A DNA stretch of 64,000 nt from Methanothrix sp. (GCA_963682135.1 OY821645.1:2464001-2528000); one strand, 5' to 3'; shown: positions 12,008-21,676, counted from the first letter of the stretch. Notes: generated from the letters alone by a model not told the origin. Translations and numbers: made by a program.

Positions 12008-12035
12008 AGGGTGAGCAGCACAAGGGGCTCTTGGC

Positions 12036-12109
12036 GCCTCGATAGCTTAGCCCGGTATAGCGCGTCCTTGGTAAGGACGAGGTCGCGGGTTCGAATCCCG
12101 TCCGAGGCT
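12036..12109 (+). tRNA. tRNA-Thr(GGT)
   Basis: GCCTCGA...CGTCC-TTGGTAA-GGACG...GCGGG TTCGAAT CCCGT CCGAGGC T, followed by an oligo-T terminator-like run. Confidence 0.92.
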
Positions 12110-12154
12110 TTAATTTTTTTTTGTTTTGATTGGCTTTATAGTGGGGGAGTTGAT

Positions 12155-12580
12155 ATGGATAAGAAATGCATATTGATTATTGACGATGATAGAGGCATAC
12201 TCGAGGGCTTCAAGCTAATCTTAGAGCGGAAAGGTTATCTAACTGATACGGCAGAGACCGGCAGTGAAGCCATAGAAAAGGTGCAAAGCAATTATTTTAA
12301 CCTGGCATTAATCGATACCAAGCTTCCTGATATGGATGGTACTGCTCTTCTCTCGGAATTTCGCCAGCTTAATCCGGAGATGAAAAAGATCATCATTACG
12401 GGTTTTTCCACTCGAGAAAATGCCATTCTATGCCTGAACCTGGGGGCAGACGCATATTTAGAAAAGCCTGTAACTCCTGGAAAATTGCTGGAGTTCGTTG
12501 CAGCGAAATTGGCAGAACAGGAATATGAGATCAAGTATCATGAGGATACTGTGAATAAGTTGCTCCAATCTCGCAAGTAA
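12155..12580 (+). CDS. Stand-alone response regulator receiver protein
   Basis: ILIIDDD, LIDTKLPDMDG, IIITG and YLEKP; start moved to ATG 12155 because the upstream part of the ORF is the tRNA. Confidence 0.9.
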   Translation: MDKKCILIIDDDRGILEGFKLILERKGYLTDTAETGSEAIEKVQSNYFNLALIDTKLPDMDGTALLSEFRQLNPEMKKIIITGFSTRENAILCLNLGADAYLEKPVTPGKLLEFVAAKLAEQEYEIKYHEDTVNKLLQSRK

Positions 12581-12606: not shown

Positions 12607-12785
12607 TCCTCCGTCAGCCCATAAAGCCGGGACCCCGTCGATCAGCCCGTCCGTGGCCTCGATCTGGCGCAGCAGGGCAGTTTTTTCGTGAGGAGTGCCG
12701 GCTTGGGGGAGCCGCTTGTGCGAGAAGCGAGCAATCTCTGCACCAGGGAGACCATGCGGTCATGACGAGCGATGTCGGCGGGATC
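12607..12785 (-). repeat. Array repeat R7 (degenerate 3' end of type IIG RM gene)
   Basis: Minus strand encodes DPADIARHDRMVSLVQRLLA / KRLPQAGTPHEKTALLRQIEATDG / RLYGLTE with frameshifts. Confidence 0.9.
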
Positions 12786-12844
12786 CTCCAATAGTTTAAA
12801 ATTATTTTTTAAGGTAGGATATAACTCTCTCTGCCCTGATCAAA

Positions 12845-14575
12845 CCCAACCTCCCGGATCAAGTAGACACATTAACCGGTCGATCTCAATTATAAAGCTC
12901 CTATTTTGAAAAACAACCCTGACTAAGCCCACTTAGCGAAAGATATTTATACTATATGCGCCTACTATTATTGAGGCGCATAATGCAAACCACTCGACGA
13001 ATCAAAGTGAAAAATGGGATCGAATATTGGTACGAAGAAACACCTTACTATGACAAGGAGAAAAAACAGATCAGACATAAATCAAAATATTTAGGAAGAA
13101 ACGTAGATGGCCAGCCGGTCCGGATGCGTTCCGCCCCTGACGAGGTCAAAGAGAAGACGAAAAAGAAAACAGAGGCGATCAAGTCATCATTTGATTATGG
13201 CTCCATATTCGTTCTTCAGTCAATTATGGAAGAGCTTCATATGGATCGCTATCTGGAAGTTTTGTTGTCTCCTTCGGAAGTGTCCATGGTTCGCGCATTG
13301 GCATTTAACCGGATTATACGACCTACTGCAATGAGGAATGTAGATTCATGGTACGAAGGAACCTCTCTTGCCCTCGAATCTCCGCAAATCAATCTTACCA
13401 GTCAGCGAGTAAGTGAGCTTCTCGGTCGATTGGGTGAAAGCAATATTCCAGACAGATTCATGTCCCAGCTTATCGAAGGAACCGGTACGAAAGACACACT
13501 CATTTACGATATTACGAGCCTGTCAAGTTACTCTCAACTCATCAATATTCTTGAGTACGGGTACAATCGTGATGGCGAGTCTCTTCCGCAAATCAATCTG
13601 TCCCTGATTCTGGATAAGGATAAAGGGATACCCGTGATGTATGACATCTTCCCCGGCAGTATTTCCGATGTCAGTACGCTTTCCGGCACTCTAAAAAAGA
13701 TAAAAGCGCATGGCATCCAAAATTATGTTGCTGTGATGGATTGTGGATTTTTCAGCTTGAGCAACCTTCGCGAGCTGATGACGAATAAAATCTCATTTAT
13801 TATGGCGGCCAGATTGCAGTTGAATGATTTGAAGCACCTGCTGACGGAAGTGCAAAAGGATCTTGATGATGTAAAATATCTCCACAAGTTTAACAAGGAT
13901 CCCATTTTTGCCAAACCAATTTCATATATTATTGATTCAATTGAAATCAGGGGGTATGTTTATTATGATCCCAAATTAGAGCAAACCGAGAAGCAGACAC
14001 TCCTAAGCAGACTCTATGATATTCGTGAAGAGTTGCTCAAGGTGCGCTTGAATAAGAACAGTAACCCCCACGTAGTTTTCAAAGATAAAGCACACGGATT
14101 TGGAAACTTCTTCGACTGGAATGTTATGGATAATCGCTTTGAAGTTACGATAAAACAAAACGCAGTTGCACAAAGAATGAACAAAATGGGCAAGTATATT
14201 ATATTCTACTCAGGAAACTTTGACGAGATGAAGTGCCTTTCTCTCTATCGCGAACGCGATGAAATTGAAAAGAGCTTCAAGGCATTGAAAAGCGAAATTG
14301 ACATCCTTCCATTGAATACTCATGGCGAAGAGACAACAAGAGGATTCATTTTTATCGCTTTCCTGAGTCTGATTATAAGGTCACGACTGATAAATATGAT
14401 GAAGGATGCAGAGATACTAGACAAATATTCTGTTGAACTTCTTCTGCTGCAATTGGAGAAATTAAGAAAAATTGCTCTTGCAGACGGACAGATAATAGTC
14501 ACCGAAATGACAAAAAAACAGAGGGAAATTCTTCAGGCGCTAGACTTGTGCGCCTGAACTTTTCGGGAGGTTGGG
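12845..14575 (+). mobile_element. IS1634-family insertion sequence
   Basis: Terminal inverted repeats CCCAACCTCCCG / CGGGAGGTTGGG; 6-bp target duplication ATCAAA at 12839-12844 and 14576-14581. Confidence 0.93.
12956..14557 (+). CDS. IS1634-family DDE transposase (start possibly 12983)
   Basis: YDITS, GYNRDG..LPQINL, VMDCGF and YRERDEIEKSFKALK. Confidence 0.92.
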   Translation: MRLLLLRRIMQTTRRIKVKNGIEYWYEETPYYDKEKKQIRHKSKYLGRNVDGQPVRMRSAPDEVKEKTKKKTEAIKSSFDYGSIFVLQSIMEELHMDRYLEVLLSPSEVSMVRALAFNRIIRPTAMRNVDSWYEGTSLALESPQINLTSQRVSELLGRLGESNIPDRFMSQLIEGTGTKDTLIYDITSLSSYSQLINILEYGYNRDGESLPQINLSLILDKDKGIPVMYDIFPGSISDVSTLSGTLKKIKAHGIQNYVAVMDCGFFSLSNLRELMTNKISFIMAARLQLNDLKHLLTEVQKDLDDVKYLHKFNKDPIFAKPISYIIDSIEIRGYVYYDPKLEQTEKQTLLSRLYDIREELLKVRLNKNSNPHVVFKDKAHGFGNFFDWNVMDNRFEVTIKQNAVAQRMNKMGKYIIFYSGNFDEMKCLSLYRERDEIEKSFKALKSEIDILPLNTHGEETTRGFIFIAFLSLIIRSRLINMMKDAEILDKYSVELLLLQLEKLRKIALADGQIIVTEMTKKQREILQALDLCA

Positions 14576-14900
14576 ATCAAAGCATCCTGAGACATTGAAG
14601 ACAAACCACTGATCGAATCGTCATAATCAGCTCTATTACGATGATTTCGCAAACGCCTTAATTCTAAGGCCAGTTTCCTTCCATTACTTCTTTTGCCCAA
14701 GCAGTAGAGCTGGCTAATGACATAACTATGGACGCTTTCATCGGGAATGATCTTATGCTCCTCATCTCTAAGATGGTTTCTAGCGGTACAAAAGGCCGCG
14801 TAGTATGCCCTGCTGATTGATGAGCGAAGCCTTGCCTCATCTTTCTCGTCGGATGATGCCAGACTTTTTGCCAGGCTCAAGTAGCGACACCATTCGAAGC

Positions 14901-15272
14901 CTATTCGTACTCCACCTGGATGAGCAGCTTAGAGTCTGACGCATCTGAGACATTGAGCAACCAATTATCGTCCAGTTGATCCAATTTATCAATGGCATCT
15001 TGCGGTGATAGATCGGTGCAGATATAGACGACCAACTGTTTGTCGCCGATCTCGTCTGGATCAGTCACTACTTCTAAGAATAGGATCTCTGAAGGGAAAA
15101 AATTTCGTATTCGACTGTAGGCCTCCATTAGCAAAGGCAAAAGATGCGGATTGCTGCCAACAAAGTCGTACACATCTGCCGCGGTCTTCAGTGTATACTT
15201 GTTATTTAGGTGTACCATGTCATGATTTCGCATGGTATCTCCTCGGTCTCCAACATCCGCCTCAGTGATCAT
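14901..15272 (-). CDS. Putative antitoxin partner of the HEPN toxin
   Basis: Acidic 123-aa protein (LEVVTDPDE...LDQLDDNW) whose stop overlaps the HEPN start. Confidence 0.65.
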   Translation of the reverse strand: MITEADVGDRGDTMRNHDMVHLNNKYTLKTAADVYDFVGSNPHLLPLLMEAYSRIRNFFPSEILFLEVVTDPDEIGDKQLVVYICTDLSPQDAIDKLDQLDDNWLLNVSDASDSKLLIQVEYE

Positions 15273-15357
15273 CAGAATTCCTCTTCGTCGGCATGAAATA
15301 AATAGATTTCATCGGCAAATCAGTCTGCCATATCCAGGGTGTCTACCTGGGACTTCC

Positions 15358-15514
15358 GCTTCCCCAATCCCGATCTCCTCTTCCGGCAGACCGTAAAGCT
15401 GGTCTCCCGTCGATCAGCCCGTCCGTGGCCTCGATCCGGCGCTGCATGGCAGTTTTCTCGTGAGGCTTGGCAGCTTCGGGGAGCTGTTTGTGCGAGAGCG
15501 AGCATTTTATCCAC
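15358..15514 (-). repeat. Array repeat R6
   Basis: VDKMLA / KQLPEAAKPHEKTAMQRRIEATDG / LYGLPEEEIGI, frameshifted. Confidence 0.9.
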
Positions 15515-15590
15515 TTTGGATTATCATTTTAACGATCGCAAGGTTAAAATTGCTGCAACCCATTAGTAGGAATAGGGGGAATAGTGCACT

Positions 15591-15851
15591 GTGCCGTTTA
15601 CCAAAGTTGATGAAAAAGGCAGAATGGTTCTACCTAATGAAATCAGGCGCAAGATGAAGATCTCACCTGGTGATGAATTTGTTGTGGACGAGGTCGGGCC
15701 GGACACAATTCTAATTAGAAAAGTGGATGTAAGATCCATGATTCATGATGCGATTGAGCGTGCCAAGTCTGTAGACCTCGATAAGCTCCAAAAAGAGATG
15801 GACGAAGAGGGAAACAGAGTTGCCAGAAAGATGTACAAGGTTCTTGATTGA
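15591..15851 (+). CDS. AbrB/MazE-type antitoxin
   Basis: TKVDEKGRMVLPNEIRRKMKISPGDE signature. Confidence 0.9.
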   Translation: MPFTKVDEKGRMVLPNEIRRKMKISPGDEFVVDEVGPDTILIRKVDVRSMIHDAIERAKSVDLDKLQKEMDEEGNRVARKMYKVLD

Positions 15852-16233
15852 CTCCAATCTATTTATTGCGGCGGTAAAGAGCGGTTGGACGAATAGTTCA
15901 AAGCTTCTCTCTGTCCTCCTGGATGGCTCTTTCGAATTGGTTGCAAACAAATCTTTGTTTGCGGAGTATGAGAAGTATGCTCAGCAACTTGATGCACAAT
16001 ATATCTTCTATTACATGAAAAGCAGGATTATTTTGACTGATCAGTCCGAAAACGAGGTGCAGAGATGCAAGCCATTCTTTCCTGAAAGTCAGGCCGCTGA
16101 TGTGGTTCATGCTGCAACCTGTCTTCATACCGCAGCGGTCTTAATCACAAATGATAAACATTTTGATAAAATAAGAGATGCAGGCCTCATAAGAGTTTGG
16201 AGCATCTCCGAGGCTATTAAGAATCTACTTTGA
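15820..16233 (+). CDS. PIN-domain (VapC-like) toxin
   Basis: FLIDSNLF, EYE, ADVVHAAT and LITNDKHF; overlaps the AbrB gene. Confidence 0.88.
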   Translation: MPERCTRFLIDSNLFIAAVKSGWTNSSKLLSVLLDGSFELVANKSLFAEYEKYAQQLDAQYIFYYMKSRIILTDQSENEVQRCKPFFPESQAADVVHAATCLHTAAVLITNDKHFDKIRDAGLIRVWSISEAIKNLL

Positions 16234-16265
16234 ATATCTCAAACTGAATTATCTTCAACCATGTT

Positions 16266-16500
16266 CTATCCTGCATCTTCCACAATCCTGATCTCCTCTT
16301 CAGTCAGCCCGTATAGCTCGTAGACCAGCGCGTCGATCTGTCCGTCCGTGGCCTCGATCTGCCGCTGCAGGGCAGTTTTTTCGTGAGGCATGGCAGCTTC
16401 GAGGAGCTGTTTATGCAGGGCGAGCATCTTCTCCACCAGGGAGACAAGCGAATCGTGGCGGGCGACGTCGGCGGGGTCGGAGAAAGCGATGGTGCGGATT
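16266..16500 (-). repeat. Array repeat R5 (only fully in-frame copy)
   Basis: IRTIAFSDPADVARHDSLVSLVEKMLALHKQLLEAAMPHEKTALQRQIEATDGQIDALVYELYGLTEEEIRIVEDAG*, the typical C-terminal helical segment of Eco57I-like type IIG RM enzymes. Confidence 0.92.
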
Positions 16501-16578
16501 AGGAAAATTTCTGCTTGAAATATTTCATGGGTCGCGTAGGTCCAGACTGTTGCAGTTCTCGGCAAGTTGGCAAAAGAA

Positions 16579-16872
16579 TTAGATTTTGAGCTTGCCCCTT
16601 GCCTCCAGCAAAGACACTAAACTCTCTGCTGACATAGGACATTCTATCAGATCATCGAGTTCGCGGATCGACTCAAGATGCAACTCTTTTTTCATAGCAT
16701 TCAAGAGTCGATCCTCGTATTCATCCAGGCCGTGACTGATCCAAGTAAATATGCTGGTCTTTTTTCCACTAACATATAATGTATATTTTATATGTTTTGA
16801 TTTGCCTTTTTTTGGAGAGAATCCTTTTTTCGTCAGAGATGCTACGATCTTCCTGGTCTTATACGCTGGCAT
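16579..16872 (-). CDS. HicA-like toxin
   Basis: Basic 97 aa; LTKKGF...SKH...T.ISHG pattern. Confidence 0.7.
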   Translation of the reverse strand: MPAYKTRKIVASLTKKGFSPKKGKSKHIKYTLYVSGKKTSIFTWISHGLDEYEDRLLNAMKKELHLESIRELDDLIECPMSAESLVSLLEARGKLKI

Positions 16873-17923
16873 TTGACTTTTCTACTCCAAACGAGGCGAT
16901 CAATTCCTTTCGAAAATCCATAGCATCCCGGCTAAGCAGTTCGAGGCCGGTTTCCACATAATCTTCCCATAGAATTTCTATTTCTTCGTTCAAATCTTCA
17001 ATTGCAGCCTTGAGGGTCGAGCCATATCCTCGCAAATGGAACTTATCATTTGAGACCCAATATTGATCATCCTCGTAGATCACTTCAAGCAAAATAGGCA
17101 CCTTCAAATTCAGCGATCTTCCCTTCATTCTGATCTTATCCAACGGCACCAATTCCAGATACTCGATAGATTTTTCGTTCACCAGGCGGAGGGCATACTT
17201 GCCTCCCTTCTCCAGTGCCATTATGCCTCTAATGAGAACCAAACGACCAATATTTTCAATGATCCTGTCTTCAAGGTCTTGGGCATATGTACAGGTAACT
17301 ACGCCTTCAAAAGTATCTATTTGAAAGCTCCTTCTCTGATCTACCCTCACTTCCATCAGTCGTCCAACAACTGATTTCTCAACGTTTTCCGGCTGCCTGG
17401 AAAGCACATTTCGAAATACATGCTTATGAGATGGCTGCAACCTCATTATGTCATGTTTTCCAAAGCCAAGACCAACATTATATTCAGATTGCTCATCCGG
17501 CCATATCGCATCAAGCTCATGAAGTACTCTAGTAAGCCGATGCTCATTTTTCATAGTCTCTGAAAGCGCGTGGGCAATATCCCTCTCTTGGGAGACGTTG
17601 ACAAGGATTTTATCCGCGATCAAAAGTGCCTTTTCACCATAAGTCACACCGCCGGGAAGACACATCTGCGAATCCGAAATCATCAATTCAGCTTCGACGC
17701 TACCGATATGCATTCCACTGATGACCAGTTCAGCTTTCTCCTTAACACTGTTTGGGAAATCCCCTGCTTTGCGTGTAGGGTTTCCTTCCAGCTCATCAAT
17801 GATATAAAAAAGAATATTCTGCAATCTCTGAAATATTCCTGCTACAAAAAGGGCTGAAATTTGACCATTATTCCTGGTCTTTGACTCAACTAACAATTTT
17901 ATCCGTTTAGTTTCATCGCCCAT
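16859..17923 (-). CDS. 354-aa protein with C-terminal HicB-like domain (putative antitoxin)
   Basis: C-terminal LEVIYEDDQYWVSNDKFHLRGYGSTLKAAIEDL resembles the HicB fold; overlaps the HicA-like gene. Confidence 0.6.
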   Translation of the reverse strand: MGDETKRIKLLVESKTRNNGQISALFVAGIFQRLQNILFYIIDELEGNPTRKAGDFPNSVKEKAELVISGMHIGSVEAELMISDSQMCLPGGVTYGEKALLIADKILVNVSQERDIAHALSETMKNEHRLTRVLHELDAIWPDEQSEYNVGLGFGKHDIMRLQPSHKHVFRNVLSRQPENVEKSVVGRLMEVRVDQRRSFQIDTFEGVVTCTYAQDLEDRIIENIGRLVLIRGIMALEKGGKYALRLVNEKSIEYLELVPLDKIRMKGRSLNLKVPILLEVIYEDDQYWVSNDKFHLRGYGSTLKAAIEDLNEEIEILWEDYVETGLELLSRDAMDFRKELIASFGVEKSNASV

Positions 17924-18000
17924 AGGTCCACCGTTTATTTATGCCCTTATTTCTACATATCCTTATCGTTTCAGTTTCTGAAAGTTCTTTATTGAAGTTT

Positions 18001-18192
18001 CTACTTGTTCGCCTTCTCCACAATCCCGATCTCCTCTTCCGTCAGCCCGTAAAGCCGGAACCCCGTCGATCAGCCCGTGCGTGGCCTCGATCTGTCGCTC
18101 CAGGGCAGTTTTTTCGTGAGGCGTGGCAGCTTCGGGGAGCTGTTTATGCGAGAAGCGAGCATTCTCTCCACGAGGGAGACCATGCGATATGC
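18001..18192 (-). repeat. Array repeat R4
   Basis: RMVSLVERMLA / KQLPEAATPHEKTALERQIEAT / RLYGLTEEEIGIVEKANK*, frameshifted. Confidence 0.9.
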
Positions 18193-18197
18193 CATTT

Positions 18198-18584
18198 TTA
18201 GTTCTGTTTTCCCACAGATCTCACAACATTGATAAAATCTTCGATTTGAATATTCGAGATGTCAAGCGCGGCAAGAAGCCCTTCATCATCCATTAAGCGC
18301 TTCATCAGCCGTCTCGTGACCTCTGAGTCGTATGCTTTATCGTGATGATCCAAATTTATAAACACGACGGCGTTTTCAAAAATTAAATAAACGACAACGA
18401 AGTGCTCTGAAATATGTAATGCTCTCAGTCCTCTGAGATTATGGCTCTTGGGCTCGCCTATCTCTGGATTTTGCCGAATACACTTCATTTTATTTATTAC
18501 TTGAAGCTTAAACGTTCTATTTTTACCAGTTAATTTAGAAAATTTCTTGTCAAAATAACCGGTAGTAATGGATTTAAATGCCAT
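18198..18584 (-). CDS. RelE/ParE-family toxin
   Basis: FDKKFSKL...NPEIGEPKSHNLRGLRALHI..FVVVY...LDHHDKAY. Confidence 0.85.
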   Translation of the reverse strand: MAFKSITTGYFDKKFSKLTGKNRTFKLQVINKMKCIRQNPEIGEPKSHNLRGLRALHISEHFVVVYLIFENAVVFINLDHHDKAYDSEVTRRLMKRLMDDEGLLAALDISNIQIEDFINVVRSVGKQN

Positions 18585-18603
18585 TTGTGATCAAAATTGA
18601 GAT

Positions 18604-18777
18604 TTATAGGCGCATCAAGTGGGCTTCCATCTCCTCGTCATCCTCAAAGACTGTGTAGCGTCCCCCAGCAAAATCCTTTAGACCTTTCACAATACCTTCA
18701 ATGAAGTCTTCCTCTTTCTTTGCTTCTTTATTTGGGATAACTTCCATTTCTGCATTAAGAGGATGTGAACATGCCAT
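18604..18777 (-). CDS. 57-aa putative antitoxin (not in ORF track)
   Basis: MACSHPLNAEMEVIPNKEAKKEEDFIEGIVKGLKDFAGGRYTVFEDDEEMEAHLMRL*; acidic, directly upstream of RelE, TTTAAATA about 25 nt upstream. Confidence 0.7.
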   Translation of the reverse strand: MACSHPLNAEMEVIPNKEAKKEEDFIEGIVKGLKDFAGGRYTVFEDDEEMEAHLMRL

Positions 18778-18961
18778 GCTCTTATGATATCGTCATGATC
18801 GTATTTAAATCCATTGTGCTCTGAGGGCTTTGCTGCATCTCTCCCAATGTTATCCTTCTAGTTTATGCATCTGCAAATATTCGTATTGGAAACCAACATC
18901 ATCCTCATCAAGGCAATCTATTTCTTCCTTATCACGGCGTCGGTCTGTCGTGCCTCGTTTT

Positions 18962-19154
18962 TCATTGAGTCGCTTTCGCCTCCACAATCCCTATCTCCTC
19001 CTCCGTCAGCCCGTATAGCTCGTAGACCAGGGCATCGATCTGCCCGTCCGAGGCTTCGATCCGGCGCTGCAGGGCAGTTTTCTCGTGAGGCGTGGCAGCT
19101 TCGGGGAGCTGTTTATGCGAGATGCGAGAAATCTTTGCACCAGGAGGGCCATGA
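18962..19154 (-). repeat. Array repeat R3
   Basis: KQLPEAATPHEKTALQRRIEASDGQIDALVYELYGLTEEEIGIVEAKATQ*; degenerate 5' part. Confidence 0.9.
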
Positions 19155-19186
19155 GATCCGCTATCAATCGTTTCTCAAGTTCATAA

Positions 19187-19594
19187 TCATAATAGATTCA
19201 TCAGTTCTCTTGTGGTAAAAACTTTGACGACATCCTGCCTCTTGAAATGTCCATCGTTGCTCCAGATCGGACAGTCTAAATACATTGCCAGAGCCAGGAA
19301 TGGAGAGTCATCGATATCAATTTCAGACATCACTTCAATTGCACTATCTTTGAAGGGGGCCAAGTCTTCAAGAGGGATAAAACTGATTTTGCTGAAGATA
19401 AAATCTTTTAAATAATCAAAGGACTTTTCATCTAGCTTTGACTTGGATAATAATTCGTCTTTGTGTCTTTCTATCTCACGATTGGCATATTCAACTGTAT
19501 ACATTTTAAAAGGTGATACGGATATTATATCTCTGGTCAAACCATTCCTTAGGAGAGAAGATATCAGGATATTCGTATCCGGCACTATCTCCAT
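19187..19594 (-). CDS. PIN-domain toxin
   Basis: IVPDTNILIS, DIDDSPFLALA and IWSNDGHF. Confidence 0.9.
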   Translation of the reverse strand: MEIVPDTNILISSLLRNGLTRDIISVSPFKMYTVEYANREIERHKDELLSKSKLDEKSFDYLKDFIFSKISFIPLEDLAPFKDSAIEVMSEIDIDDSPFLALAMYLDCPIWSNDGHFKRQDVVKVFTTRELMNLL

Positions 19595-19824
19595 CCTAAT
19601 TTCTCCATTATTTCCCGCTTCATCTTGTGGTCTAATTCATTCACGTCATCTTCAGAAAGATCGCTTTTTTCCAGGAGCGTGTCAAAAATTATTGAAATGA
19701 ATATATCATTTTTTATATCTTCTAGAATATCCCGCTCTATTCTTTTTCGCACTAGTGCATCCAAATCTCTGTTGGCCTTTATCGATAACTCAATCTCTCG
19801 GGGAAGCTCAACTTCTATCGACAT
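19585..19824 (-). CDS. Putative antitoxin of the PIN toxin
   Basis: 79-aa acidic ORF (SDLSEDDVNELDHKMK) overlapping the PIN start. Confidence 0.7.
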   Translation of the reverse strand: MSIEVELPREIELSIKANRDLDALVRKRIERDILEDIKNDIFISIIFDTLLEKSDLSEDDVNELDHKMKREIMEKLGWR

Positions 19825-19864
19825 TTTATTGCCCGTATCCTAAATGCTGGAAAAGAATATAAAA

Positions 19865-20062
19865 CTACTTGCTCGCCTTCTGCACAATCCCGATCTCCTC
19901 TTCCGTCAGCCCGTACAGCCGGTCCCCCGTCGATCTGCCCGTCCGTGGCCTCGATCTGGCGCTGCATGGCCGTCTTCTCATGAGGCGTGCTGGCTTGGGG
20001 GAGCTGCTTGTGCGAGAAGCGAGCAATCTCTGCACCAGGGAGACCATGCGATCATGACGGGC
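19865..20062 (-). repeat. Array repeat R2
   Basis: ARHDRMVSLVQRLLA / KQLPQASTPHEKTAMQRQIEATDG / RLYGLTEEEIGIVQKASK*, frameshifted. Confidence 0.9.
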
Positions 20063-20549
20063 TAGCATTCCAAAGACCTATCGTTTCCCGCGCATCTTTC
20101 AGCGATACAATTTTGAGCTGAAAGCCATATGGAACCTGATAGTTCAGAAGAATTTTGTCGGTGGTTATGAGGTAATTCATATTATACGCCAGAGCATAAC
20201 CAAGATGAGTACGATCAGTTGGCTGCAATCGATCTTTGCATTCGTCCACAAGATGCCAGCAGACTTCAGCTACCCTATTTGTAGGCGGCAGGAATCTGAT
20301 ATCAAGTTTCCTCCATAGCTCGATCAAAGAGGCAATCGTCTCCATTTTGTGAGGATCGCTTCCCTCTTTTTCGCGAGTCAGACTCTTAAAAACAGTTTCT
20401 GCAAGCACTGAGAATGGGACACAAAGCTCCAGCGTGGGGTGATTATCGATGTGGTCGAGAAGGCCGATTGCAAGCTGCGACTTTCTATCTTTTTTTTCAG
20501 TGCTAACAGAATAAAAGAAGATATCAGCGTCTATGGCAACGTGATTCAT
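20052..20549 (-). CDS. PIN-domain toxin (divergent, 165 aa)
   Basis: VAIDADIF, VLAET, PTDRTHLGYA and LITTDK; its stop codon is supplied by repeat R2. Confidence 0.8.
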   Translation of the reverse strand: MNHVAIDADIFFYSVSTEKKDRKSQLAIGLLDHIDNHPTLELCVPFSVLAETVFKSLTREKEGSDPHKMETIASLIELWRKLDIRFLPPTNRVAEVCWHLVDECKDRLQPTDRTHLGYALAYNMNYLITTDKILLNYQVPYGFQLKIVSLKDARETIGLWNASPS

Positions 20550-20704
20550 TTCTTGCCAAAAGCCTTCTCTATTCTTTCCTTCGTCGCCTTATCTTCTTCT
20601 TCGGTAACAGCCCATACGATCCTGCCGTTGATATCCACAGCACCGCCGTAAGGCAACTGATTCTTGTCCGAGTCATAGATCTGCCCGACTACATATTCTG
20701 CCAT
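20546..20704 (-). CDS. 52-aa putative antitoxin (not in ORF track)
   Basis: MAEYVVGQIYDSDKNQLPYGGAVDINGRIVWAVTEEEDKATKERIEKAFGKK*; ATGA overlap with the PIN gene, GAGG upstream. Confidence 0.65.
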   Translation of the reverse strand: MAEYVVGQIYDSDKNQLPYGGAVDINGRIVWAVTEEEDKATKERIEKAFGKK

Positions 20705-20756
20705 TCATTTCCTCGATCTGAGTTTGGCTTTTTTCGATAATATAGTTTTCGCCGGT

Positions 20757-21000
20757 TCATTTGTCTGCCTGCGATCCTTCTACGATTCTTATCTCCTATT
20801 CCGTCAGCCCGTACAGCTCGTAGACCAGGGCATCTATCTGCCCGTCCGTGGCTCGATCTGTCGCTACAGGGCAGTTTTTTCGTGAGGCGTGGCAGCTTCG
20901 GGGAGCTGTCTATGCAAGGCGAGCATCTTCTCCACCAGGGAGACAAGCGAATCGTGGCGGGCGACATCGGCGGGGTCGGTGCAGAATGGGAGCAGCTATG
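20757..21000 (-). repeat. Array repeat R1 (probable native 3' end of the decayed RM gene)
   Basis: LLPI / TDPADVARHDSLVSLVEKMLALHRQLPEAATPHEKTAL*RQIE / TDGQIDALVYELYGLTE*EIRIVEGSQADK*. Confidence 0.88.
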
Positions 21001-21043
21001 ATACGGGATCAAGAAATGGATATACAGACTTTCGACTATGATT

Positions 21044-21162
21044 TTACCACAAAGGCACAAAGCTCACAAAGAACGCACAAAGACTAATCGGCAAAATATA
21101 TCCTAACCAGAATTTAATAATTTTCTTTGTGAGTCCTTTGTGCGCGTTGTGTCTTTGTGGTG
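21044..21162. repeat. REP-like inverted pair built from CACAAAG units
   Basis: ACCACAAAGGCACAAAGCTCACAAAGAACGCACAAAG (21046-21082) and the inverted CTTTGTGAGTCCTTTGTGCGCGTTGTGTCTTTGTGGT (21125-21161), about 40 nt apart. Confidence 0.8.
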
Positions 21163-21226
21163 ATAGTAGTAGTAAGTACTAACACCCCATCCTGCCAAAA
21201 TATATTTGACAATTATGATACTAATT

Positions 21227-21460
21227 TCCTTCGACATCGACTGCCTCCTCCTCTTTGACCTATCTCTTGTCGGCCCGGCATTCCTGCTTGTGGTAGACAT
21301 CCCAGCCCAGCGCCTCAAAAAAGGGATTGATGAACTCCGTTCTCAGCTCGGTCTCATTGTACTGACTGGATCGATAGATGTCCTGGTCACGCTCGAACTT
21401 CTCCATCAGCTCGAGGATCTTTGCTGGTGCCTGTGCTTGTGTCGGTGCCTCTGCCTGCAA
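21227..21460 (-). pseudogene. 5' remnant of a type IIG (Eco57I-like) restriction-modification gene
   Basis: APAKILELMEKFERDQDIYRSSQYNETELRTEFINPFFEALGWDV...KR*VKEEEAVDVEG, the N-terminal PD-(D/E)XK (HsdR_N-like) segment; GGAGG before TTG 21460; internal stop, remainder missing. Confidence 0.8.
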
Positions 21461-21676
21461 TTTCTTTGCCCTCCGGCGCACTCATTGACTGCTCTCCCGA
21501 AAAAGCTTCTGGCAGGAATGCAGAGAAAACGAGACTTGAGGCAAATCATCAAGTCTCAAGGCGGCATAGTCAGCTCAAAATTTTTAAAAATCCATACGGA
21601 TTCCCTAAGCTATTGCCAAAAGACCACAAAGCCGATATACCTCCTTATCTTAGCGCATATCGAAAGGCGAGATAAA

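Follow-up and report, generated by a model that had tools for sequence, protein, structure and literature searches.

The 64,000-nucleotide (nt) stretch of Methanothrix sp. DNA analysed here (GCA_963682135.1 OY821645.1:2464001-2528000; the window) contains, between a response-regulator gene and a hydantoinase-family gene, an array in which seven copies of the 3' end, or tail, of a type IIG restriction-modification (RM) gene alternate with small gene modules. All seven tail copies (R1 to R7) have minus-strand sense and are 157-255 nt long. They had been described in the original prediction as co-oriented GC-rich repeats, and the coordinates proposed there were matched exactly or within ~20 nt. 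Peaks in guanine-cytosine (GC) content of 0.57-0.615 coincide with the repeats, while the intervals lie at 0.33-0.47. Pairwise matches among R1 to R7 in the genome have E-values from 1e-31 to 1e-120, and chance is therefore excluded. Each of the six inter-repeat intervals holds one distinct two-gene module, hereafter a cassette (c1 to c6), of 0.58-1.35 kb, and five of the six share the orientation of the tails, cassette 5 being inverted. An assembly artefact is unlikely, given that the genome is a single contig of 3.04 Mb with 99.87% completeness and that the layout is also present in independent assemblies from at least seven congeners.

The source of the repeat was identified in a congener in which the RM gene is intact. 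The encoded protein of 1063 amino acids (aa) matches the Pfam domains Eco57I (1e-48), N6_Mtase (5.8e-18), MmeI_Mtase (3e-15) and, at residues 822-984, TaqI_C (2.4e-16), in addition to a weak match to HSDR_N (1.7e-05). This gene fits an Eco57I/MmeI-like type IIG enzyme, with a nuclease N-terminus, a gamma-class N6-adenine methylase and TaqI_C in one ~1000-aa protein; in the PDB it is related to BseCI and other adenine methylases. What is repeated in the array corresponds to the stretch of ~75 residues C-terminal to TaqI_C, that is, to the last 0.2-0.27 kb of the gene. These domains bear out the earlier assignment of the repeat peptide to the C-terminal segment that follows the recognition domain in Eco57I-like type IIG enzymes. 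The fragments in the array begin at or after the end of TaqI_C, with at most ~16-30 codons preceding the tail, and no recognition domain is present in them.

Of the five RM genes of the genus that were compared, three agree at 77-97% identity over the first ~2 kb. Identity falls to 24-66% in the region of the recognition domain (the next ~1.3 kb), and conservation returns in the last ~270 nt. All ten pairs are 85-94% identical in the final 90 nt, which are conserved more strongly than any other part. From this conserved-variable-conserved profile, the repeat is the conserved 3' arm beside a hypervariable and evidently exchangeable recognition domain. The identity of the final 90 nt is maintained even where the methylase parts of the RM genes are only 55-75% identical, and this conservation suggests either that paralogues have been homogenised or that the sequence is constrained as DNA.

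The RM gene 3' end is the origin of the repeat, as had been proposed, but the RM gene itself is missing from this locus apart from an N-terminal remnant. The remnant matches residues 6-90 of the intact RM protein of one congener (G001) at 82% (tblastn), is 87-96% identical to the N-termini of congener RM genes and shows a weak HSDR_N match. When an intact congener RM protein was compared with the whole genome by tblastn, no RM parts were found beyond this remnant and the tails. The body of the RM gene has been deleted in this genome, leaving the array orphaned. The idea that each tail is the remnant of a separate full RM gene was excluded, as tblastn gives only residues ~984 onward at each repeat and the N-terminus once. 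A palindromic element resembling a miniature inverted-repeat transposable element (MITE) lies at the deletion junction; its arms have 24 further partial matches in the genome, and MITE-like sequence also adjoins tails in the arrays of two congeners (G004 and G015).

All copies had been expected to encode variants of one peptide. This was not the case: a single copy, R5, is intact in one frame, and R1-R4, R6 and R7 carry indels, R1 also having a TAG. R2, R4 and R7 have +2 and -5 indels in common, R6 has +1 and -5, and R3 has +2 only. In R2, the +2 and -5 indels jointly restore the frame, resulting in an open reading frame (ORF) of 67 aa in which the middle 31 codons are out of frame; R4 and R7 contain stops in this out-of-frame stretch, which stays open in R2. 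Because of these stops in the same stretch of R4 and R7, the open frame of R2 looks like a coincidence. The notion that orphan tails are functional small proteins found no support in the genus, where the -5 variant shifts the frame of 11 orphans among the 38 scored tails and R1 contains a stop; in other lineages, orphan tails are intact ORFs of 54-81 aa.

The six cassettes are all different, as had been claimed, and in four of the six a recognised toxin domain exceeds the Pfam cut-off: PIN in cassette 1 (30.4 bits), PIN_2 in cassette 2 (E 1.1e-26), ParE_toxin in cassette 3 (25.3 bits, the NCBIfam YafQ/RelE matches being under cut-off) and PIN_3, accompanied by MazE, in cassette 5. Being small two-gene units with a recognised toxin domain, these four are classed as predicted type II toxin-antitoxin (TA) modules. 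The labels originally given to the other two cassettes were upheld less well. The HicA_toxin match of cassette 4 (E 0.0064) and the HEPN match of cassette 6 (E 0.0031; PADLOC HEPN_IX, E 0.0013) are under the Pfam cut-off. The 354-aa protein of cassette 4, which had been called HicB-like, has no family match in Pfam, NCBIfam or PADLOC, and the Atlas contains only hypothetical-protein clusters for it. Likewise, neither the 123-aa protein of cassette 6 nor the short putative antitoxins match a family in NCBIfam or PADLOC.

Table 1. Features of the array in window coordinates. The tail types give the states of the two indel markers described in the text.
Feature	Position	Strand	Remarks
Type IIG RM N-terminal remnant	21227-21481	-	~85-90 codons; 73-aa ORF at 21260-21481, in-frame TAG, homology to ~21227
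MITE-like palindromic element	21035-21182		~45-nt inverted arms; between RM remnant and R1
RM tail copy R1	20757-21000	-	type A1A2; TAG and 1-nt deletion
Cassette 1 (c1)	20052-20704	-	52-aa putative antitoxin (20546-20704) and PIN toxin (20052-20549)
RM tail copy R2	19865-20068	-	type B1B2; mosaic relative to G001
Cassette 2 (c2)	19187-19824	-	79-aa putative antitoxin (19585-19824) and PIN_2 toxin (19187-19594)
RM tail copy R3	18962-19167	-	type B1A2, recombinant marker combination
Cassette 3 (c3)	18198-18777	-	57-aa putative antitoxin (18604-18777) and ParE/RelE/YafQ-like toxin (18198-18584)
RM tail copy R4	18001-18195	-	type B1B2
Cassette 4 (c4)	16579-17923	-	354-aa protein without named family (16859-17923) and HicA-like protein (16579-16872)
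RM tail copy R5	16266-16520	-	type A1A2; sole in-frame intact copy; within 99-aa ORF 16266-16565
Cassette 5 (c5), inverted	15591-16233	+	MazE/AbrB antitoxin (15591-15851) and PIN_3 toxin (15820-16233); Pfam over cut-off
RM tail copy R6	15358-15514	-	5'-truncated; -5 variant
Cassette 6 (c6)	14581-15272	-	123-aa protein (14901-15272) and HEPN-like protein (ORF 14533-14880)
IS1634-family insertion sequence	12840-14580	+	transposase 12956-14557; NCBIfam transpos_IS1634, E 1.8e-91
RM tail copy R7	12607-12785	-	type B1B2; without last ~25 nt; distal array end beside response-regulator gene
Response-regulator gene	12011-12580	+	bounds the array
Hydantoinase-family gene	from ~21680	+	bounds the array

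The tails carry signatures of recombination. Alignments revealed that each of c1, c2, c5 and a gene designated RelE86 is preceded, wherever it occurs, by its own constant set of final RM-like codons, stop and leader. Behind c1, the following tail opens with the same 5' start in four of five genomes; behind c5 this applies to two of three, with an insertion sequence (IS) cutting the remaining one. Since the ends of the tails co-vary with the neighbouring cassettes, each tail is a hybrid, of which the 5' start goes with the upstream cassette and the last codons and leader go with the downstream cassette. Comparison of this genome (G000) with G001 gives ~93-95% identity for the cassettes. R2 is only 62-80% identical over its 5' two-thirds, where there are indels, and 95-100% identical over its last ~60 nt. 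In the genus, 38 tails were typed at two indel markers separated by ~95 nt, and eight of these tails gave no score at one marker. The 30 fully scored tails comprise 19 of type A1A2, six A1B2, one B1A2 and four B1B2, and all four combinations are consequently present. Of the 12 copies with the -5 variant, 11 are orphan tails, from six species, and one ends a broken RM gene; among the 38 tails, the variant is absent from all those that end an unbroken RM reading frame. This confinement of the -5 variant indicates that orphan tails propagate from orphan tails.

In the genus, the repeat DNA was matched in 21 of 24 congeners, seven of which have at least three copies on one contig; 16 genomes belonging to other families of the class gave no match. 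The orthologous locus, identified by its hydantoinase/deacetylase flank, differs in cassette content among relatives, and the predicted combination of an intact IIG gene with arrays that vary in number and order was found. In this genome, the deleted RM gene is followed by c1-c2-c3-c4-c5-c6. G001 has an intact RM gene (1063 aa) followed by c1-c2, and G012 has an intact RM gene (1038 aa) followed by RelE86-c1-c2-inverted c5-GNAT. In G024 (L060), the RM gene has one tail only and lacks cassettes. A second locus, which is flanked differently, reads RM-c5-IS605-type element-Mrr-PIN147-RelE89 in G024 and RM-empty tail-c1-RelE86 in G015. Cassette 1 is shared with G001, G012, G015 and also G010, cassette 2 with G001 and G012, and inverted cassette 5 with G012 and G024 at 93-94% aa identity. 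Cassette 4 was found once in the metagenome collection, on contig L153, where it lies directly behind a different intact RM gene of 989 aa with a 48%-identical N-terminus. Identity is ~88-97% from the RM stop codon to the stop of the HicA-like gene (90-97% at the aa level for cassette 4) and 57-75% in the preceding tail, so that the RM stop codon marks the break in similarity.

Homologous putative antitoxins of 55-70 aa were observed in G012 (L053, 10798-11541) and G024 (L052, 11015-11667; oriented coordinates). In one array the partner of the antitoxin looks like a GNAT acetyltransferase, and in another it looks like a PIN protein; a Methanolinea contig (L080) has a related pair behind its RM gene. 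Toxins may thus have been swapped on a single antitoxin family.

The genome of the window itself contains five further tail matches at three other places, all of which are tied to RM remnants or TA genes. At 626300-631652 of the genome lies an intact type IIG gene (1308 aa) that belongs to another subfamily and has a c1-like antitoxin and a frameshifted PIN gene behind it. It is also trailed by a copy of ~150 codons of its own longer tail, which starts just after the recognition domain, the same structural boundary as in the array tails. One other place is a two-tail mini-array around a RelE86 gene. At 1158769-1159017 and 1162424-1162654, ~25 N-terminal RM codons are fused to the RM tail in tiny ORFs; these two fusions look like in-frame deletions of the whole RM body, and a RelE-like gene and a winged-helix gene are located between them. 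With regard to the IS1634-family element, it interrupts the 3' end of the HEPN-like gene at 14580, and its ends were set by a 1741-nt copy at 1570810-1572550 of the genome. As this full copy is 99.8% identical and a partial copy at 1440147-1441499 is 97% identical, the element has probably been active recently.

The layout extends beyond the genus. A 72-aa tail peptide matched 137 of 401 genomes sampled from the phylum. This survey gives examples, not rates (~150 of ~340 matches listed), and among the matches listed, many consist of an RM frame of ~1000 aa followed by short orphan tails 1-3 kb downstream. In the examples that were fetched, GmrSD, a Schlafen/AlbA_2 protein, a SIR2 protein (PADLOC PDC-S65), membrane proteins and TA pairs are found between tails, and some cassettes match only candidate PADLOC families (PDC-S65, PDC-S11). 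For a scan across species, an alignment of 12 tails was used with one genome per species, and the best 80 of 533 matches resulted in 79 loci. The counts are rough, as these loci are the best matches to the query, many contigs are cut and the division into archaeal and bacterial loci follows record titles: at least two tails are present in 26 of the 79 loci (13 of 28 archaeal, 13 of 51 bacterial) and at least three in ten, with gaps between tails mostly of 0.5-1.0 kb. All 51 extra tails lie on the same strand as the first tail of their locus, and the genes beside the tails of the 26 loci include TA, Mrr, GmrSD, SIR2 and Schlafen-like genes. By record title, the layout occurs in about ten or more bacterial groups; read from the sequence, a Caldilineaceae genome shows the order RM-VapBC-tail, and a Chloroflexi and a Planctomycetota genome have four tails each. 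The tails of isolated bacterial loci are 87-96% alike within a locus vs 72-85% to tails elsewhere, which points to local duplication or homogenisation. On a Methanotrichaceae contig (L118, 7155-13714), eight tails include two pairs that are 100% identical and ~3.9 kb apart. This suggests that a block of several cassettes was recently duplicated in tandem within the array, and identical pairs of this kind are expected after recent unequal crossover. A tblastn comparison of the tail peptide with plasmids yielded seven weak records, none of them informative.

In another family of the phylum (L064, 3759-10399; G424:C16), the orphan tails are intact ORFs of 66-81 aa and the cassettes are large. They encode a 526-aa protein with a weak Cas13-ApeA match, a DUF2254-like membrane protein, a SIR2 protein that matches PADLOC PDC-S65 at 1.9e-69, and a 362-aa protein.

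The original prediction had noted that no integrase or attC site was visible, and both parts of this remark agree with our searches. A whole-genome search for tyrosine recombinases (PF00589) gave four matches, at 0.91, 1.63 and, twice, 2.81 Mb, none of them within 280 kb of the array. Three of the four contain internal stop codons, and since the window covers 2.46-2.53 Mb, none lies inside it. A nearby tyrosine integrase is excluded by this search. When tails were folded as single-stranded DNA, with both strands considered, the five folds had z-scores of +0.32, +1.16, +1.09, -0.14 and +0.95 relative to shuffles, a range of -0.14 to +1.16 that excludes an attC-like structure of the tails.

The repeats, the differences in cassettes between species, the chimeric tails, the conserved arm and the presence of the same cassettes behind different RM genes are the observations to be explained. 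On the basis of these sequences, we consider homologous recombination, with the 3' tail of an Eco57I/MmeI-like type IIG RM gene as its substrate, to be the probable process behind the array. This explanation fits because the tails are chimeric, all four marker combinations occur, the breakpoints shift, and there is neither a tyrosine recombinase nearby nor a folded site. As the conserved arm behind the hypervariable domain, the tail is where crossovers must fall when specificity domains are exchanged. Once two tails enclose a cassette, crossovers between them, carried out by the RadA/RecA machinery of the host, would delete the cassette and release a circle composed of one tail and one cassette, and a further crossover could re-insert such a unit into any tail. 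In unequal exchanges, cassettes would be carried along when a new specificity domain is acquired, and crossovers would create new cassette orders. The stepwise addition of units and the integration of small circles by single crossover, both put forward in the original prediction, may have taken place in this way. Neither a dedicated integrase nor an attC-like site would be required, and the outcome would be a self-renewing small defence islet downstream of the RM gene. We infer not only that the recombination is homologous and host-driven, but also the circles, the direction in which the array grows and the role of the cassettes in defence or addiction.

Several points weigh against this explanation. 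Most differences between arrays could stem from differential deletion of a longer ancestral array; gain or transfer is required only by the conflicting order of RelE86 and c1, by the two loci that share cassettes and by the position of c4 behind a different RM gene. Cassettes 3 and 6 are absent from the ten congener loci examined, and their status as cassettes derives from this array only. The first duplication of the tail has no explanation under homologous recombination. The tails begin at different 5' positions, ranging from 16 codons before 'DPAD' (R5) to 'KML' (R6), which suggests that illegitimate joins or later deletions fit better than simple reciprocal crossovers. The identity of 90-nt junctions separates same-family from different-family pairs moderately (0.69 vs 0.51 upstream, 0.57 vs 0.39 downstream), and this score is noisy, with several low same-family pairs that are partly due to coordinate choice and alignment mode, so that the printed alignments are preferred. 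The search for recombinases near the array covered the tyrosine class only; serine and other enzymes were not searched. Finally, the data show recombination inside the repeats, and no intermediate, whether a circle or a deletion allele within a population, was seen.

The first of these points is carried furthest by the proposal that differential decay alone is at work. According to this proposal, there was an ancestral long array, or several RM and TA neighbours, in which tails recombined and cassettes were lost with no gain, and the present array is a fossil. The order c1-c2 is indeed retained in G000, G001 and G012, and between G000 and G001 the cassettes have diverged about as much as the flanking genes (c1 96-100% and c2 89-92% aa identity, against 89% for the hydantoinase and 97% for the deacetylase). 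Many tails are frameshifted, G000 has lost its RM gene, those of G004 and G024:C8 are broken, and deletion between tails would by itself make chimeric tails. Nevertheless, we regard decay alone as unlikely. RelE86 precedes c1 in G012 and trails it in G015, and c1, c5 and RelE86 are found at two chromosomal loci behind RM genes with different recognition domains. The arrangement on L153, with c4 directly behind a divergent RM gene and the similarity breaking at the RM stop codon, is also difficult to reconcile with loss only, as is the lack of N-terminal or methylase remnants between the cassettes. The recent internal duplication suggested for L118 would represent a gain, and the layout in 13 bacterial loci of different phyla cannot stem from one array.

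Insertion with long target duplication was reportedly described by Nobusato et al. in 2000. Furuta, Abe and Kobayashi (2010; PMC2853133), in the part of the paper available to us, describe inserted RM units that are flanked by direct repeats of 46-423 bp of a target present in single copy, and that lack mobility genes. Judged from that part, this is the closest described event to the tail arrays. The likeness consists in the long direct repeats, the absence of mobility genes and the link to RM systems, and G024 provides a single-tail empty allele, with tails longer than 30 bp. If it also operated here, each TA cassette would have been inserted on its own, copying ~200 nt of the target, and the tails would be by-products rather than the substrate. 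The greater likeness of tails within isolated bacterial loci is what local duplication predicts, and TA modules and RM systems are both established to behave as addiction modules. However, we consider this origin very unlikely. It leaves unexplained why orphan tails of six species have the -5 variant in common beside different cassettes, and why the tail ends co-vary with the neighbouring cassettes. In the events described in the available text of PMC2853133, moreover, an RM unit with R and M genes enters an arbitrary target, and these are single events rather than TA pairs or arrays. The inserts considered here are TA or defence genes, the target is always the tail of the RM gene itself, and the process is iterated to up to eight or nine tails. 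None of the cassette inserts holds an R and M gene unit; they are TA pairs in this array and Mrr, GmrSD, SIR2 and Schlafen-like genes elsewhere.

Site-specific recombination in trans, in which a remotely encoded recombinase would act on a core site in the tail as in integrons, is most improbable: the cassettes are short, mostly co-oriented (five of six here, and all extra tails in the scanned loci) and without mobility genes, and the last 90 nt are the most conserved part of the gene, as a recognition site might be, but the few, mostly interrupted PF00589 matches are remote, the tail has no excess single-strand structure, the tail 5' starts and similarity breakpoints scatter around no single core, and archaea and many bacterial phyla would all need to share the enzyme. 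Chromosomal integrons commonly carry TA cassettes. Their arrays resemble those described here in having short, mostly co-oriented cassettes without mobility genes that are bounded by repeats and located downstream of a fixed platform. They differ in that here no tyrosine integrase is nearby, the repeat is a coding gene end of 157-255 nt rather than a folded attC of 60-140 nt, and the boundaries do not lie at a fixed core.

Homologous recombination on the RM tail, the explanation that we favour, has further parallels. In rhs and cdiA loci, orphan toxin-immunity modules are located downstream of the main gene, each preceded by a fragment of the conserved sequence of the main gene, on which homologous recombination is thought to swap them. 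The displaced modules with their fragments recall the present arrays. In rhs and cdiA, however, the fragment precedes an alternative variable end of the protein; the RM fragment is itself the conserved end, and what it accompanies are genes unrelated to the RM gene. Movement of recognition domains in RM genes has reportedly been found, and allelic diversity of target recognition domains in RM genes is treated in the available part of PMC2853133. Recognition-domain exchange in type IIG and type I systems has in common with our data that conserved arms flank a hypervariable domain, as in the profile of the five RM genes, and differs in that the reports cover a domain swap and not a multiplication of 3' arms around foreign cassettes. 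In the accessible portion of PMC13617665, compact TA loci that lack genes of mobile elements were proposed to move by recombination in flanking homology. Such TA islets resemble the tail arrays in the movement of TA genes via flanking homology; as far as that portion goes, they are flanked by core genes and not by a portable, multiplied 0.2-kb tail. The original prediction had stated that no described system has this layout, and we found no description of RM-tail cassette arrays in the full-text literature, which does not cover supplements and subscription journals, where a prior description is possible. The tail arrays are also unmentioned in the accessible parts of a 2025 review of RM biology and of a 2026 study of TA acquisition.

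These observations imply a feature far wider than one window. A more general proposal, which we advance tentatively and which may well reach too far, is that the type IIG RM tail serves as a recombinase-free platform for cassette capture across Archaea and Bacteria. Swaps of the specificity domain would then also gain, lose and reorder the TA and defence genes strung behind the RM gene, and selection on RM specificity would drive the turnover of the arsenal. Two open questions are touched by this layout, which is present in methanogens that are important for anaerobic digestion, namely how TA and small defence genes move without mobility genes and their clustering beside RM systems. For both, it offers a testable substrate: a portable homology arm of 0.2 kb that is already a recombination site for the swapping of specificities. 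If this is true, orphan RM tails would be a cheap genomic signpost to new defence genes, several of the cassettes described here being without a named family, and integron-like cassette arrays could arise by ordinary homologous recombination.

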